Below are positions 1 to 6,288 of a stretch of DNA of 6,288 nucleotides, piece after piece. The translations under genes were made by a program, and so were the position numbers. The notes below the pieces were generated by a model. That model did not search any database. It worked only from the letters and a program-made list of their open reading frames with translations, and had not been told where the DNA came from. Each line of letters opens with the position of its first letter. Within the stretch, counting starts at the first letter, position 1. The stretch spans positions 1 through 6,288 of IMG/VR virus record IMGVR_UViG_3300011530_000017. One strand, given 5' to 3'. Source of the DNA: a virus (Duplodnaviria > Heunggongvirae > Uroviricota > Caudoviricetes).

Positions 1-2112
1 TCAGTTGAGCTTAGCTGCAATCGACAGCTGCATTGGGCTATCTGAATTTTGAAGTCTTACTACAAATACCAATGATGAAGTTGTGCTTTCTGTAGCAACA
101 TAATTCACAGACGCCAGTCTTGGATATACTGAGCTTCCGTTATATGCATCAATGCTGAGGTATGGATTAACTTCTCCAGCTCCGGGCACATACGGCAGGC
201 TTAAACCAGATATCGTTATCTTCTGGTCGGAGGTACTAGACGCTGAGACTGTACCGGCCCCAGATTTCACTACCATCCGGTTACCACCAGAGCTACTCGT
301 CAACTCCAACGCAGCTCTCGACCCTGCATCTGTTGCGCCGTCGAAGCCGGACACCCAGGTACCCAGTCCACCCTCGTTGAATATGCGACCTCTTAACTGA
401 CCAGCCGTTCTCCAGAATCCGCGTGCTGAGTACCCGATACGTACATCAACAGTGTGGTTGAAACCGCCGTTCACAGCCAATGCCGTGCCGATATAACCGT
501 TGCTGTCTGTCCCGAAGCAGCCACGGATACTACCTGTTAAGTGGTTGTGATCGCCTTCGATTAAGACGCCAGACCCCGGGAGGTTATCTGCAACAGTCGG
601 GCTCCGTACGTGCTGGACGTTCACGGTATTGAACTGCCCGCCGAGGTAGATAGCCCAGCTAGCATAGTCTTTATTAGTTGTCTTCTCAGACTGCAAGCTA
701 TGGATGGTTCCGAAATCACTTATCTTGCCGCTATTCGTGCTGCTTTCAATAATAATAGCGGGAGGATATGTACTCATGGCATGCAACGGGACGGGAAGAT
801 GTTGACTATTCTGATGCGCGTCGAGCCTTGACCCCAAGACGTAGCTACTTTTCCTGAACCACGCACCGATCAAGCAGCTTTCAACAATCATTTGGCCGTA
901 CTGAACTCGGATAGTAAAAATATTCGCATCAGAGCCAAATACGGCACCGTAGCCGTTGTAGTTGCCATAGCTGTGGAAGAGTTCAAGGCTCACACCTCGC
1001 CAGGCTCTGAAGTTGGCGACTCGTTCATTCGGTGCCCAGAATGAACGCACGTCATCTGTAGACACATACCCATCCCCGGCTCCAACAATTTCGATGTCTT
1101 CGAGGTAGTAGTCCTGACTCTCGCAGTGCCAGCAATCGTTGCCACAGAACTGGATACGAATCTTCCGATGCGTGCCGATATGCCCCCACCCACGATCTGG
1201 GTCAGCGGCCTGGTACAGGCTACGGTTTCCACCCCAGTTCAGCGTTACAAGGCCGACGCTTGGAACATAGATAATCTTAATGTTCTCGAGGTGCATGTTC
1301 TCACCAGCAAGCAAAAGACCACAACCAACATCCTTCGCAGGAGTCCCTGAGAATTTTGATTTATTGCCGTGGATGGTCAGATTCTTAACTCCGGAACTGA
1401 AGCAGCCTGGCACGATCTGGCTGGCACTATCCGTCTTGTACGTGAGATAACCCTGCCCCATAATCACTGCATTACCAGTCCAGTTGTCCGGCGCTTTAAT
1501 CATTGTAGTTTCGAGCGTTACACCCTCAATAACGACTCGCGGTTTCAGCAGCAGATTAGCAGCACGGTACGTTTTAGCCCTGAGCTTAACAATGCCGCCA
1601 CCTTGTGCGTAGACGTAATCAATAGCCGTCTGTATTGCCGCTGTGTCATTGCTAACGCCGTCCCCCTTAGCATTGAACTGCTCAGCCGTGACATTTACAA
1701 GGGCATCCTTTAGAGTGCCATTTGGTGATACACCGACGAGTGAGCCATCTCCATTCTGAAGAACATATTTAAACTGGTCAGGCTCATACTTCAGTACATT
1801 TGGGAAATAAAATTCCTGCGATCCATATGCGTCAAACACAGCCATGCTGTGACCCTGCTCGGTCACAACCTTAACAATTTGCCCGCCATAAACTGGAAAC
1901 CCGGCAGCATTGATAATTAGCGGCTGCGGTATCTGAACAAGCGAGCCATCTTCATTTTCAATGTAAACCGGGATTTGGTTGGCCGGAATTGTTGGGTCTT
2001 TGTCTATCTTTCCGATGTAAATACGCCCGTTAGCGAGCGCTTTAAAAGAACGCGATGCAGTGAAAAGTTGGGACGGCATCCCGACTACGACATTAGCTGT
2101 GATATCTGACAT
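1..2112 (-). CDS. Tailspike protein (703 aa): P22-type head-binding N-terminal domain plus right-handed beta-helix receptor-binding/depolymerase module
   Basis: Start ATG at 2110..2112 (revcomp of cat), GGAG at 2120..2123 seven nt upstream, stop TGA at 1..3. The protein begins [40 protein letters not shown]...[13 protein letters not shown]...[28 protein letters not shown], closely resembling the P22 gp9 head-binding domain ([34 protein letters not shown]..., recalled from memory). From about residue 146 the motif [22 protein letters not shown] is the signature seen at the start of pectate-lyase-like beta-helix tailspikes. The ORF-track start at 2160 adds 16 residues ([16 protein letters not shown]) with no RBS and is rejected. 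Confidence 0.9.
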
Positions 2113-2219
2113 TTCATTGCTCCAGACGAATGATATGATGCAACCATGATGTGATTGCATACCGAAATGGTACTATTGAGTATTTATCCAGTAGGTTACG
2201 ATGCCATTCCACCCAACTG
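2113..2219. promoter_or_regulatory. Divergent intergenic region between tailspike and mnt-like gene: tailspike RBS, short inverted and direct repeats, possible promoter/operator
   Basis: Tailspike GGAG at 2120..2123. Inverted repeat ATGCAA (2138..2143) / TTGCAT (2155..2160) with an 11-nt spacer. ATGATG occurs at 2135..2140 and 2146..2151, 11 bp apart. On the minus strand TGGATAAAT (plus 2182..2190) is a weak extended -10-like candidate. No confident promoter can be assigned, and the region is cut short by the N-run. Confidence 0.3.
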
Positions 2220-2229
2220 NNNNNNNNNN
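2220..2229. other. Run of 10 N: assembly or sequencing gap of unknown true length
   Basis: Ten consecutive n characters in the sequence, falling inside or just upstream of the 5' end of the mnt-like gene. Confidence 0.95.
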
Positions 2230-2445
2230 CTCCACGCGAAAATTAAGCAGCGTGCGAAGATGAATAACAGGTCGCTGAACTCAGAGATAATTGCAGCGAT
2301 TGAAGAATCATTGGCTAAACAAAGCTCTGCATCTGTTTACATTGACGATGCAGATCGTATGGCAGAACAACAATCTGAGATTGTTAAGAAAATTGTCTTT
2401 GATACGCTTAAGACCATGTATAGCAATAATAAAAAGGAAACATAG
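2230..2445 (+). CDS. mnt: Mnt-like ribbon-helix-helix repressor, 5' end obscured by the gap (resolvable part 71 aa plus stop)
   Basis: The translation after the gap, LHAKIKQRAKMNNRSLNSEIIAAIEESLAKQSSASVYIDDADRMAEQQSEIVKKIVFDTLKTMYSNNKKET, parallels P22 Mnt (...REKLKFRAEANGRSMNSELLQIVQDALSKPSPVTGYRNDAERLADEQSELVKKMVFDTLKDLYKKTT, recalled from memory). Stop TAG at 2443..2445. The expected N-terminal beta-strand of the RHH fold is missing, so the true start lies in or beyond the N-run. The track's start at 2155 ([21 protein letters not shown]) does not look like Mnt and depends on the gap being exactly 10 nt. Confidence 0.8.
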   Translation, partial: LHAKIKQRAKMNNRSLNSEIIAAIEESLAKQSSASVYIDDADRMAEQQSEIVKKIVFDTLKTMYSNNKKET

Positions 2446-2515
2446 AAATCTAGTTTCCGGCTAAAATGGCATTGCCTTCATGATATCCTGTGAAAAACTA
2501 AGGAGAGTTAACCAT

Positions 2516-3001
2516 ATGAAAAAATCACTGTTAATTATCCCGCTTCTGCTGGTTGGATGCGCAAAAGTAAGTGACTATCAAGCAAGTTGCGAACAACGCT
2601 ATCAAAAGCTTAGCGATATGGCTAATTGCCTTGATGCCAGTGTGAAGAACGACTCACGCATGGCATCAGCACCAACACCTAAGCTGTATGTCCTTGCTGC
2701 AAAGATGCTCGGGCAAGGTGTCGATGAAGGCAAGATAAGTGACGCACAGGCAAGACTTGAGCTTCAGAATCTTTATGTTCAATTACAAAGCCAAGAACAA
2801 GCCCAACAAATAGCACAAAGCCAAGCATTCCAGCAGGCTTTATTGAATTATCAGGCTGTAAACACAATGCAAGCGATCGAGCAAAAAGCGCGCCAGCCTG
2901 TTATAACTCAACCTTACCCAACACGCGTTGACACATATACAAACTGCAATTCAGGATTTGGAAACACGGTAACATGCAACAGTAGCAGTAACATCAGATA
3001 A
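2516..3001 (+). CDS. Lipoprotein of unknown function (161 aa precursor), candidate superinfection-exclusion or lysogenic-conversion moron
   Basis: ATG at 2516..2518 preceded by AGGAG at 2501..2505 (10-nt spacing), stop TAA at 2999..3001. N-terminus MKKSLLIIPLLLVGC has a basic n-region, a hydrophobic core and lipobox L-V-G-C with Cys15. Residue +2 after the Cys is Ala, not Asp, which by the Lol sorting rule predicts outer-membrane targeting. The mature ~146-aa protein has a Gln-rich helical stretch (QNLYVQLQSQEQAQQIAQSQAFQQALLNYQAVNTMQAIEQ) and four further Cys (SCEQ, ANCLD, TNCNS, VTCNS) that could form two disulfides. The track's start at 2480 adds 12 residues with no RBS and is rejected. 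I do not recognise this protein as Bor, Cor, Llp, a spanin or SieA. Confidence 0.8.
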   Translation: MKKSLLIIPLLLVGCAKVSDYQASCEQRYQKLSDMANCLDASVKNDSRMASAPTPKLYVLAAKMLGQGVDEGKISDAQARLELQNLYVQLQSQEQAQQIAQSQAFQQALLNYQAVNTMQAIEQKARQPVITQPYPTRVDTYTNCNSGFGNTVTCNSSSNIR

Positions 3002-3091
3002 CAATCAGCAAAGATATCGCCTATGCAGAGGGATACGATAAACCTCGCGTTCTACATATTTGGTTTTTGCACGTTCCTGGTGTTTGAAAGG

Positions 3092-5089
3092 CTATTCTGA
3101 CAACGAATCAGACTTCGCACCCTGCGTCAGTGCATTAATCGCTTTTTGCGCTTGCTGCATGGCTTTCTCAAACGCTGTCGATCCGCGTGGGGTGTTTGCC
3201 ATTCGGAGCATTGCATTTCTGAATGGCTCGCTCTCATAGGCGCGAGTAAGAAGTCCGTAGCTTACTGCTGCGCCAGTTGTCGCCGGGTTCATTGCCGTCC
3301 CATACCCAATAATGAACGGGATAGTTTGCTGCCCTGTGGGTGTTGTTACTGCCGCTTTTGCAGCCTGCTGCGTGGATTGCAGGTAGTTTTTTAATCCTTT
3401 CAGATAAGCAGCGTCCTGCCCCTTAAATGTGATGCCAGTCTGGTTTTGCAGGATATTAAGCTGCCGAAGGAACTGGTCAGGGGATCCGCCAGATTTCTCC
3501 ATCGCCTTTCCAATGATGCCATTGCGCATTTGCGCCCTGCCAACACGACCAACTGAGTTATACAGCGTCTTAATTTCCGATTTGTTCTTGCTGAATAGCA
3601 TGTTGTTGACAACTTCCGGCGTCAGGTCGCCTTTCATGAGAACATTCTTCAGCCTGGTATTCTTTAGTTTCGCTGCTTCGTCAGCGTAGACGGCATTGGC
3701 CTGCTGATATTTACGGAGAGTATCGTTGCCAAGATTCTGACCAATGGCACCATTGATATCGTCGGTCATTGCCTTGTAAACTCGCTGAATGGCAGCATCG
3801 GAACGGTTTGGTAACACTGGCCGCTCACCCTTCACGTCCATTCTGAACTGGCTGCGCAGATCGCTTAATTGCTTCAAATCCAGATTTACCGGACCATCAG
3901 GACCAGCATTGCGAACAAGCTCATCACGATAGGACTGAAGTTTTGAAATAGTCTCGTTATCGGCGACCTTACCAAGCTTCTGCAGGTTAGATATTTCTGT
4001 ATCAATCTGCTGAATTGCTCGCGCAGGCTGAATGTTTACTCCAGCCCTAGCATTCTGAACCTGCTCCAGTCGATTACCGGCGGCACGACGAATTCCTGAT
4101 GTTTTCGCTTTAAGGCTGTCAATAACAACCGCTGGATCATACTCACCGAATTTATCAGCAAATCTCTGCACCAACTGGCTTCTCGCTTCCTGTTGCGTTG
4201 CTCTCATTCCGCTTGTGCCAGCCAGAGGGATATTTTCTGCTGTAGTCTGCGCCATTTTTCCGACGCGGGAAGTTGGTTGTAACAGGTCTGTGGTGTACAG
4301 AGGAACTCCTTCACGCTCTGCAAATCTGATAGCCTGCTGCGCTTCTGGCGCGATAGCACCACGAACGCCACGATAAGCAGCACCTAATCCACGTCCGGCA
4401 GCGTTAATAGCACCGCCAGTAAGTACACCAACGCCTAAATCGGTGGCGAGTGCTTCCGCATCATCTTTCGCACTATTTGCAGCAAGTGATCCAACTGCGT
4501 TTTCTGCGAGAAGTCGTGTTGCCCCCTGAGCAATTCGACCAGCAAGTGTTGGTGCCTGTGCCGCCGCTCTCTCAACGCCAGCAGGAGTGAGGTAAGGCAA
4601 TGCTTCAGCAAATACCCTTCCCTCTGTCGTTTGTGGAGTCAGCGCGCCTTGCTGAAGGCCAAAGTCCTGCTCTAATCCCTGCGTTGTTACTCGTGGCGCT
4701 GGTTGATATGTACCATCGCCAATACCGAGTTTACCGCCAGCCCATGCTGCCGCGCTTGTTACAGCATCGGCAACTGATGCAGGTATGTTTGCCACGTTCA
4801 CGCCAGCCTGCACCAGTCCGCGACCAGTCTCTTTTACTGCTTCGCCAAGATCAGACATAAATCCACTTTGCTGTGGTTGTTGCTGTGCTACTGGTTGTTG
4901 TGTCTCCACTGGCTGCACAGATGGCAATGGATAGGCAGCATAGAAAGCTTGCTTAGCCTGCTCTGCATTTTCTCCGGCTTGCGGGGCCACGACTTCATTG
5001 AAGTATTGCTCCTGAGCCAGCGCTTTTTGTTCTGGTGCTAACGCCTGATACTGTGGAGAGGCGATAACATCTTTCCATGCTTTAGCCAT
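3092..5089 (-). CDS. Ejection (DNA transfer / E) protein, gp16-like by position (665 aa)
   Basis: ATG at 5087..5089 with GGGGTGA upstream on the minus strand, stop TAG at 3092..3094. This is the last long ORF of the late operon immediately before the immI-like/tailspike region, the slot of P22 gene 16. The sequence has Gln/Ala/Gly-rich low-complexity stretches and no recognisable enzymatic motif. The call rests on synteny and composition, not on a remembered alignment. Confidence 0.75.
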   Translation of the reverse strand: MAKAWKDVIASPQYQALAPEQKALAQEQYFNEVVAPQAGENAEQAKQAFYAAYPLPSVQPVETQQPVAQQQPQQSGFMSDLGEAVKETGRGLVQAGVNVANIPASVADAVTSAAAWAGGKLGIGDGTYQPAPRVTTQGLEQDFGLQQGALTPQTTEGRVFAEALPYLTPAGVERAAAQAPTLAGRIAQGATRLLAENAVGSLAANSAKDDAEALATDLGVGVLTGGAINAAGRGLGAAYRGVRGAIAPEAQQAIRFAEREGVPLYTTDLLQPTSRVGKMAQTTAENIPLAGTSGMRATQQEARSQLVQRFADKFGEYDPAVVIDSLKAKTSGIRRAAGNRLEQVQNARAGVNIQPARAIQQIDTEISNLQKLGKVADNETISKLQSYRDELVRNAGPDGPVNLDLKQLSDLRSQFRMDVKGERPVLPNRSDAAIQRVYKAMTDDINGAIGQNLGNDTLRKYQQANAVYADEAAKLKNTRLKNVLMKGDLTPEVVNNMLFSKNKSEIKTLYNSVGRVGRAQMRNGIIGKAMEKSGGSPDQFLRQLNILQNQTGITFKGQDAAYLKGLKNYLQSTQQAAKAAVTTPTGQQTIPFIIGYGTAMNPATTGAAVSYGLLTRAYESEPFRNAMLRMANTPRGSTAFEKAMQQAQKAINALTQGAKSDSLSE

Positions 5090-6288
5090 TAATCACCCCA
5101 TAGTGAAGAAAAGTTACTGCTGGCTGCTGGCTGTGATACCTGTGCAGGTTGAGATTGCTGCCGCTGAGATTTACCAACATTAACGTTATATTGTTGGTTG
5201 TAATTGTTGGTGTATTCCTGAATCTCACGAATCGACTGCTGCATAGCCTCTGGGCTTGAATAGTCAACCTGCGGCATCCCCTGAAAATACATCTTCGCTT
5301 CTGCAACGGTGTTAATACCACTGGCACCCATGTCCCTTGCTGCCGCCACACCCTGATTCTGCATTCTGCCCTGAATACGTTGTGCTGAGTTATATAACTG
5401 GCGCTGCTCTTTTCCTGTTAATCGGCTGCGAACATCAGCACCAATTGCTGGATTACCTGCACCGCCTGTCATTCCTGTCATGAAATCGAGAGCAGAAGCG
5501 TCTGCATTTGCGATCGCGTCGATATCCTTCTTCATGGCATAGTTTTGTGCTGATGCAGACGATGTTGCAGGCGCTGCGATTGAACTGGCAGGAACGCGAA
5601 CCATATTCCCCTCGTTGTCGATGCCTTCGTAGAACGCATTAGCCCCAGCGCCGTGAAGCTTACCGCCTACCGTTACAGTTCTGCCATCTGATAACTGAAC
5701 TGTACGCTCATCATTCACAGCGATTCCTCTTGTTGACGCTCGCTGCATTGCCAAATCCTGACCTCGCCGCGCAGTAAAAGCAGATAAGTCCTGACCGCGC
5801 ATCGTGATGTTCTGACCTAGTGCTGTTAGCGCCTCGCCAGCCTGATTGCTGCGGATTGTCTCTGCAAGTTTTCCGCGGTCAATCTCACGACCAACGATTC
5901 TGTCTTGTGCCTGAAAATATTGTTCTGGACCAAGCGCATGCATTCCGATGAGATCGGCATACTGGCTGAACTGCTGAGGATTCTGCTGATACGCCTGCAC
6001 CACAGCTTCTGGCGTCAAGCCTAACTGCTGTAATGCTCCGGCATGTTTCTGAGCGGCAACCTGCACCGCCTGCGGGCCCGTTATGGCTGCCAGCTGAAGA
6101 TCACTGGCGGCATTACCAATCTGCTTATTTTTTTCAGCATCAATGAAGCCCAATCCCTGCTGAATAGCCTGAATCTGGTCAGGGTTGCTGGCCGCCAGTT
6201 GCTTTAATGCTTCCCGGTCACCAGATGCATAGGCCTGGCCGAAAGCCTGCTGAAATTGCTGTTGCTTGTCGTTATTCTGGATTTGCGA
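5089..6288 (-). CDS. Ejection protein, gp20-like by position (partial: 5' end lies beyond the right edge of the window)
   Basis: Stop TAA at 5089..5091 overlaps the downstream ATG as TAATG. The reading frame stays open from 6288 down to the stop (hand translation of 6154..6288 shows no stop: ...[55 protein letters not shown]...). The track's start at 6153 is a TTG inside this open frame and is rejected as the true start. Gln-rich C-terminus ([17 protein letters not shown]). Confidence 0.75.

Follow-up and report, generated by a model that had tools for sequence, protein, structure and literature searches.

The DNA analysed here, referred to as the window, is a stretch of 6,288 nucleotides (nt) from a virus of the class Caudoviricetes (positions 1 to 6,288 of IMG/VR record IMGVR_UViG_3300011530_000017). 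It begins with a minus-strand gene that is best explained as the tailspike gene of a P22-like (Lederbergvirus-type) temperate podovirus of Escherichia, composed of two portable modules. A head-binding domain of the P22/Sf6 type is joined, at about residues 115-131, to an unrelated beta-helix module, just as a preliminary description of the sequence had proposed. Domain architecture, breakpoints, portability and fold class are demonstrated by the analyses reported below, and we are confident that the protein is a mosaic that acts as a polysaccharide-directed receptor-binding spike. New in this gene is the receptor module only, which is without a characterised or deposited-phage relative; the principle of swapping such modules is already known.

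Architecture of the tailspike gene

The tailspike open reading frame is intact and uninterrupted, comprising 703 codons and a stop codon at 1..3, with exactly the coordinates originally reported for it. The protein shares 96% amino acid identity with its closest homologue, P0001, and at the DNA level blastn finds 94.6% nt identity over 1..2105 with the contig L001. Translation starts at ATG 2112..2110, and all homologues begin at the equivalent methionine. An alternative in-frame ATG further upstream at 2160, which would add 2113-2160 on the minus strand and yield 719 residues, is supported by none of the homologues, and the position of the ribosome-binding site favours the ATG at 2112. A scan for promoters and terminators returned signals at background level only. 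The parts of the gene are as follows.

1..2112, minus strand: complete tailspike gene (open reading frame and translation; collinear with the 704-residue P0001)
2120..2123, minus strand: ribosome-binding site GGAG, 7 nt upstream of the ATG at 2112, read directly from the sequence
1771..2112, minus strand: head-binding (tail-attachment) domain, residues 1-114 (Pfam, structure matches, blastn)
1720..1770, minus strand: linker and exchange zone, residues 115-131, 17 codons (between the blastn breakpoints 1772 and 1719)
778..1719, minus strand: conserved N-terminal half of the receptor module with the cap and the first beta-helix rungs, residues 132-445 (blastn, identity profile, model)
1630..1677, minus strand: cap motif of the pectate-lyase/AlgE N-terminal type, residues 146-161 (inside PF12708)
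1126..1146, minus strand: family signature CGNDCWH, residues 323-329 (most conserved peptide, chosen for the locus scan)
946..969, minus strand: family signature YGNYNGYG, residues 382-389 (conserved peptide used in the locus scan)
313..777, minus strand: hypervariable C-terminal half of the beta-helix, residues 446-600 (identity profile)
4..312, minus strand: C-terminal beta domain, residues 601-703 (own strand pattern, predicted local distance difference test score, pLDDT, above 90; conserved LPYxP and SPMQ motifs)

Residues 1-113 match the Pfam family PF09008 (Head_binding) with an E-value of 4.2e-59 and 198 bits against a cut-off of 24, which places the protein in the P22-like tailspike family. 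A phmmer search of the PDB retrieved Sf6 gp14 (E 1.9e-53, residues 1-214) and P22 gp9 (E 1e-47, residues 1-137), in both cases with the N-terminus only, and Foldseek gives 68-74% identity between the domain and its solved counterparts from P22 and Sf6. These matches agree with the earlier proposal that residues 1 to about 114 are close to the P22-type head-binding domain. That proposal had also seen no recognisable similarity to P22 gp9 beyond this domain, and indeed the phmmer alignment with full-length P22 gp9 ends at residue 137; a second stretch scores -3.3 bits and is not significant. Homology to the P22 gp9 beta-helix (P22 residues 125-666, including the catalytic residues E359, D392 and D395) was not found.

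An AlphaFold model of the monomer, calculated from an alignment of 30 sequences, has a mean pLDDT of 83.3, with the helix mostly above 85. The head-binding domain is followed in it by a long series of short beta strands (residues ~140-590), predicted in the pattern that right-handed parallel beta-helices typically show, and then by a C-terminal beta domain (residues ~600-703). The latter is about 50% identical across the family, and L637-P643 and M694 are invariant.

The exchange zone between the modules

The two parts of the gene have different relatives at the DNA level. With Gally and IME10, two P22-like phages of E. coli, blastn detects homology that begins upstream of the gene and breaks off at nt 1772 (F114); with the contigs L002 and L003, which encode tailspikes of the PF18668 type, homology extends from the 3' end of the gene to nt 1719 (G132) and no further. 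Over 1..1719, L002 is 90% and L003 81% identical to the window. The E-values behind the points confirmed here all lie far beyond chance. What remains between the two breakpoints is a linker of 17 codons. In the AlphaFold model, residues 109-137 have pLDDT values below 50 and form the sole long low-confidence segment, flanked by well-folded parts. The linker is 100% identical in P0001 and 24-53% identical in all other homologues. The point of exchange had previously been bracketed between about 1680 and 1770; both breakpoints fall inside this interval to within 2 nt, and the zone is now sharpened. Recombination within the linker would have given rise to the tailspike gene.

Portability and rarity of the receptor module

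Searched against 5.8 billion proteins, residues 115-703 have 61 relatives, the closest of which differ in the type of phage that encodes them. P0001 (96% identical) has the PF09008 anchor and the same joint, and it belongs to a P22-like prophage on a 58-kb metagenome contig (L001) that carries homologues of the coat, gp4, gp7, gp20 and gp16 genes upstream and a bacterial flank 99.6% identical to E. coli chromosomes. In P0002, the module is 94% identical and sits behind a PF18668 Tail_spike_N anchor. Its gene follows those for a 1,149-residue tape-measure protein and an NlpC/P60 protein, and because these tail genes adjoin it we read the contig as siphovirus-like. P0003 (module 89% identical, likewise with a PF18668 anchor) is encoded after tube, sheath-initiator and baseplate genes, and its contig is read as myovirus-like for that reason. 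Going by these sequences, the receptor module is truly portable behind different N-terminal anchors and would move among podo-, sipho- and myovirus-type phages. In IMG/VR sample 3300011617, the module is present on two viral contigs (L008 and L015), one with the P22 head-binding domain and one with PF18668, which suggests two phage types directed at one host strain.

About 40 further relatives are tailspikes of prophages from Cronobacter malonaticus and, in a few cases, E. coli, with either anchor. They belong to the same module family and are 53-57% identical, with 54-57% over the receptor module for P0010-P0047. Residues 446-600, however, are merely 28-44% identical, and on that account these proteins probably differ in specificity from the window tailspike. 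A literature search yielded no characterisation of the Cronobacter and E. coli relatives.

The module is rare. Of 1.84 billion cluster representatives (50% identity clusters) scanned exhaustively with HMMER, only 16 reach E ≤1e-30, and a scan of species-representative genomes (one per species) found only two distant copies, 42% and 38% identical, in Dryocola sp. BD626, which did not point to a host. With the tailspike DNA as query, megablast found no match among INPHARED phages or in 5,426 complete E. coli genomes, and an exact-protein look-up of the window tailspike returned no record. The preliminary description had regarded the mosaic as a new combination, unless the protein turned out to be nearly identical to a characterised tailspike. 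No such tailspike was found in INPHARED, the PDB or the complete E. coli genomes, and in this respect the claim of novelty holds; it does not hold for the combination as such, as a 96%-identical full-length copy with the same joint exists in the metagenomic E. coli P22-like prophage.

Fold, conservation and candidate active site of the receptor module

Residues 140-282 match the pectate-lyase-like family PF12708 (E 9.4e-10, 39.1 bits against a cut-off of 27), and cap motif and rungs together identify a pectate-lyase-like right-handed beta-helix of the PF12708 clan. The pectate-lyase-like motif had already been recognised, with the F146 codon placed exactly at 1675..1677. In a profile comparison (E 1e-16), the cap motif corresponds to residues 5-45 of epimerases of the AlgE type, and the fold is that of an AlgE-type A-module. 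The central helix alone (residues 280-460) gave nothing significant against solved structures, and a Foldseek search of PDB and BFVD with the helix retrieved only spikes that are uncharacterised or 10-20% identical.

Conservation divides the module into two halves. Over residues 132-445, identity is 50-98% except in the 3-4 most distant family members, and the model gives this half pLDDT values mostly above 85. Seven polar residues (N250, D334, H380, Y382, E411, D431, and H433) are invariant in 30 close and 18 diverse relatives and are predicted by the model to fall on successive rungs, an arrangement that is usual for the active-site grooves of beta-helices. Depolymerase activity would be located at a groove lined by D334, H380, Y382, E411, D431 and H433. 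Within the signature CGNDCWH, C323, N325 and D326 are nearly invariant, and H329 is lost in distant relatives. Residues 446-600, on the other hand, are 89-100% identical only in P0001, P0002 and P0003 and 19-64% identical in all other homologues. This variable half is likely to be the specificity-determining part.

Recombination joints also occur within the receptor module. In P0004, identity is about 90-94% for residues 301-450 and about 60% beyond residue 450, and P0008 is 84-90% identical up to about residue 300 and then 22-54%. By these identity profiles, the receptor module is itself a sub-mosaic.

Association with genes for O-antigen glucosylation

In two relatives, genes of the gtr type follow the tailspike gene. 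On L001, the genes for a gtrC-like membrane protein, gtrB and gtrA are located directly downstream, and on L003 a Glucos_trans_II gene and gtrB are found there. Moreover, L001 (10397-13795) and L002 (10433-13844) share a continuous 3.4-kb block of 93% nt identity that extends from tailspike codon 133 through the gtrC-like gene (99% amino acid identity) into gtrB, and thus joins a P22-like E. coli prophage of the podovirus type and a siphovirus-like contig. In at least this one case, the receptor module would have moved together with the adjacent gtr genes. Temperate phages that modify the O-antigen to which they adsorb represent a well-known pattern (P22, Sf6, epsilon34). Since relatives carry gtr genes adjoining the module, the O-antigen appears a more likely receptor than a capsule, and taken by itself the O-antigen is a reasonably probable receptor. 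Neither complete E. coli genomes nor INPHARED phages contain the gtrC-like gene, and an inference of the serogroup was thus without result.

A more far-reaching idea is that the module and the adjacent gtrC-like gene constitute one mobile receptor cassette across podo-, sipho- and myovirus-type temperate phages and that, at the same time, the catalytic set (D334, H380, Y382, E411, D431 and H433 on an AlgE-like helix) is one undescribed for tailspikes. We regard this combined proposal as speculative and rather improbable. If the cassette were real, a phage would gain with it both the key to an O-antigen and the means of altering that O-antigen after lysogeny.

The tailspike gene in its phage backbone

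The window from 2230 to 5992 is 95-96% identical at the nt level to the E. coli phages Gally, IME10 and Sf6 and has P22 gene order. Upstream of the tailspike gene and on the expected strands lie a gp20-like gene (PF16928), a gp16-like gene (phrog_770) and mnt, as is the case in the late region of P22-like phages. Two features adjoin the tailspike gene directly.

2220..2229, no strand: 10 consecutive N, an assembly gap or masked bases, located at the 5' end of the divergent mnt-like gene and matched by 65 nt in IME10
2230..2445, plus strand: 3' part of an mnt-like repressor gene (PF11423 Repressor_Mnt, E 1.5e-11; Arc-like ribbon-helix-helix domain)

The mnt-like gene is transcribed away from the tailspike gene, and Gally has the same arrangement of the two. 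The DNA for the head-binding domain is only 73-77% identical to the Gally and IME10 tailspike genes, whereas the flanks are 95-96% identical; measured in this way, the head-binding domain is foreign to the surrounding backbone. Because of this difference, import of the whole gene would have been the last transfer. Compared with L001, the complete tailspike gene matches at 94.6% nt identity, and elsewhere in the window only 5916-6267 is comparably matched (89.8%). The sequences thus indicate that the joint of head-binding domain and receptor module is older than the last transfer and common to L001. The complete tailspike gene, head-binding domain included, would represent a more divergent cassette in an Sf6/Gally-like backbone. 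On L001, an HNH_3/AP2-type endonuclease gene (9467-9976, minus strand) is present in place of mnt, directly upstream of the tailspike gene; a homing-type nuclease adjoining a swapped tailspike gene might promote exchange.

Proposed function and alternative explanations

In the function that we propose, residues 1-114 would fasten the spike, presumably a homotrimer, to the gp4/gp10 tail hub. Following a flexible linker of 17 residues, residues 132-703, with the right-handed parallel beta-helix and the C-terminal beta domain, would recognise a host surface polysaccharide, most likely the O-antigen, and would most probably cleave it; enzymatic cleavage of the receptor appears fairly likely to us. 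Several points weigh against this proposal. No member of the module family is present in the PDB or in any characterised phage, and a profile search of the PDB aligned residues 143-256 only, with the active site not mappable by homology. In structure, the protein comes closest to epimerases and lyases whose substrates are uronic-acid polymers. The tailspike stop codon marks the end of the window, and the linkage to gtr genes is visible only in relatives. Finally, the N run at 2220-2229 falls just where backbone and tailspike cassette meet. Given such structural neighbours, the module could be a lyase that depolymerises capsule or exopolysaccharide by beta-elimination, or another enzyme for uronic-acid polymers, and not an O-antigen hydrolase. 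We consider this unlikely. The motif YG(F/I)DPH(D/E), which we take from the AlgE4 literature to be the catalytic motif of AlgE, was not found by a regular-expression search; its nearest look-alike, GNDCWH, loses the histidine in distant relatives (7 of the 18 diverse ones). Similarity to AlgE is confined to the generic cap (residues 143-256), and gtr O-antigen modification genes adjoin the module in two relatives.

A module that merely binds its receptor and has no enzymatic activity is less probable still. The catalytic residues are not assignable by homology, and the non-enzymatic beta-helix adhesins PfbA and Vag8 are among the fold neighbours, both of which would fit a purely adhesive protein. 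Nevertheless, relatives as distant as about 30% identity all retain the Asp, Glu, His and Tyr residues that occupy consecutive rungs, whereas the surrounding surface varies, and the P22-type tailspikes that have been studied (P22, Sf6, HK620) are endoglycosidases. Lastly, the mosaic could be an artefact of assembly, with two phages of a mixed sample scaffolded together. The 10 N at 2220-2229, the 65 nt found there in IME10 and the jump in identity to IME10 from 77.5% on the left of the run (1772-2219) to 95.6% on its right (2230-2413) speak for an artefact. The gap, however, is located 108 nt outside the tailspike gene, the joint at 1720-1771 is reproduced on the independent 58-kb contig with 94.6% nt identity over the whole gene, and order and orientation on either side of the gap match IME10 and Gally. 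As the gap lies outside the gene and the joint recurs independently, a scaffolding artefact, which we consider highly improbable, could touch only the joint between backbone and cassette and not that between the modules.

Other genes of the window

An open reading frame of 173 residues (2480-3001, plus strand) matches phrog_6067, a family of unknown function, with an E-value of 2e-110 and has a lipoprotein-type signal from M13 (MKKSLLIIPLLLVGC). It is placed between the ejection-protein genes and mnt, and its equivalent in Gally is annotated as hypothetical. P22 has sieA at this position. Because of the lipoprotein-type signal and the sieA position, the protein could be a superinfection-exclusion lipoprotein.

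At 5916-6288 (minus strand), the gp20-like ejection-protein gene runs off the end of the window, with its frame open to 6288; an apparent internal start at 6153 is an artefact of the listing of open reading frames. The match to Gally does not extend past 5992, and over 5916-6267 the window is 89.8% identical to L001; this is a further mosaic joint inside the gene.

Significance and comparison with known systems

Tailspike receptor modules set phage host range, and each new module is a candidate reagent for serotyping, depolymerase-based decolonisation and host-range engineering. The gene described here provides a clean natural example of how tailspikes of three tail types are swapped at a defined linker (codons 115-131), in one pair together with gtr genes. 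Its value is incremental until the substrate is identified; it is useful for host-range prediction.

The joining of P22-type head-binding domains to unrelated beta-helix modules is textbook tailspike mosaicism (P22, Sf6, HK620, CUS-3), and P22, Det7 and 9NA are a known example of one receptor module that podo-, myo- and siphoviruses have in common. Recent surveys have described the exchange of tailspike modules widely in E. coli phages (PMC10408124; bioRxiv 10.64898/2026.05.19.726188). The E. coli HS phage preprint concerns a different, dual-spike architecture.

With P22 gp9, Sf6 gp14 and HK620 gp9, the window tailspike shares the head-binding domain, the position of the gene after the ejection-protein genes and adjoining mnt, and the general plan of head-binding domain, linker, right-handed beta-helix and C-terminal domain. 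Spikes with PF18668 (Tail spike TSP1/Gp66 N-terminal domain) are different in that the window protein has PF09008 instead and no PF18668 domain, and the PF18668-type spikes TSP1 and TSP2 of CBA120 are merely 12-13% identical to it. Compared with the A-module of AlgE4-type mannuronan C5-epimerases and alginate lyases, the window protein is devoid of YG(F/I)DPH(D/E), the sequence alignment ends at about residue 256, and, unlike these enzymes, it is a phage structural protein with a tail-attachment domain. A close parallel is the case of P22, Det7 and 9NA, in which tails of three types likewise carry a near-identical module that follows different anchors and is joined to them immediately ahead of the beta-helix. 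That case concerns lytic phages of Salmonella, whereas here a different module family is found in prophages of Escherichia and Cronobacter, and in one pair the exchanged block also carries gtr genes.
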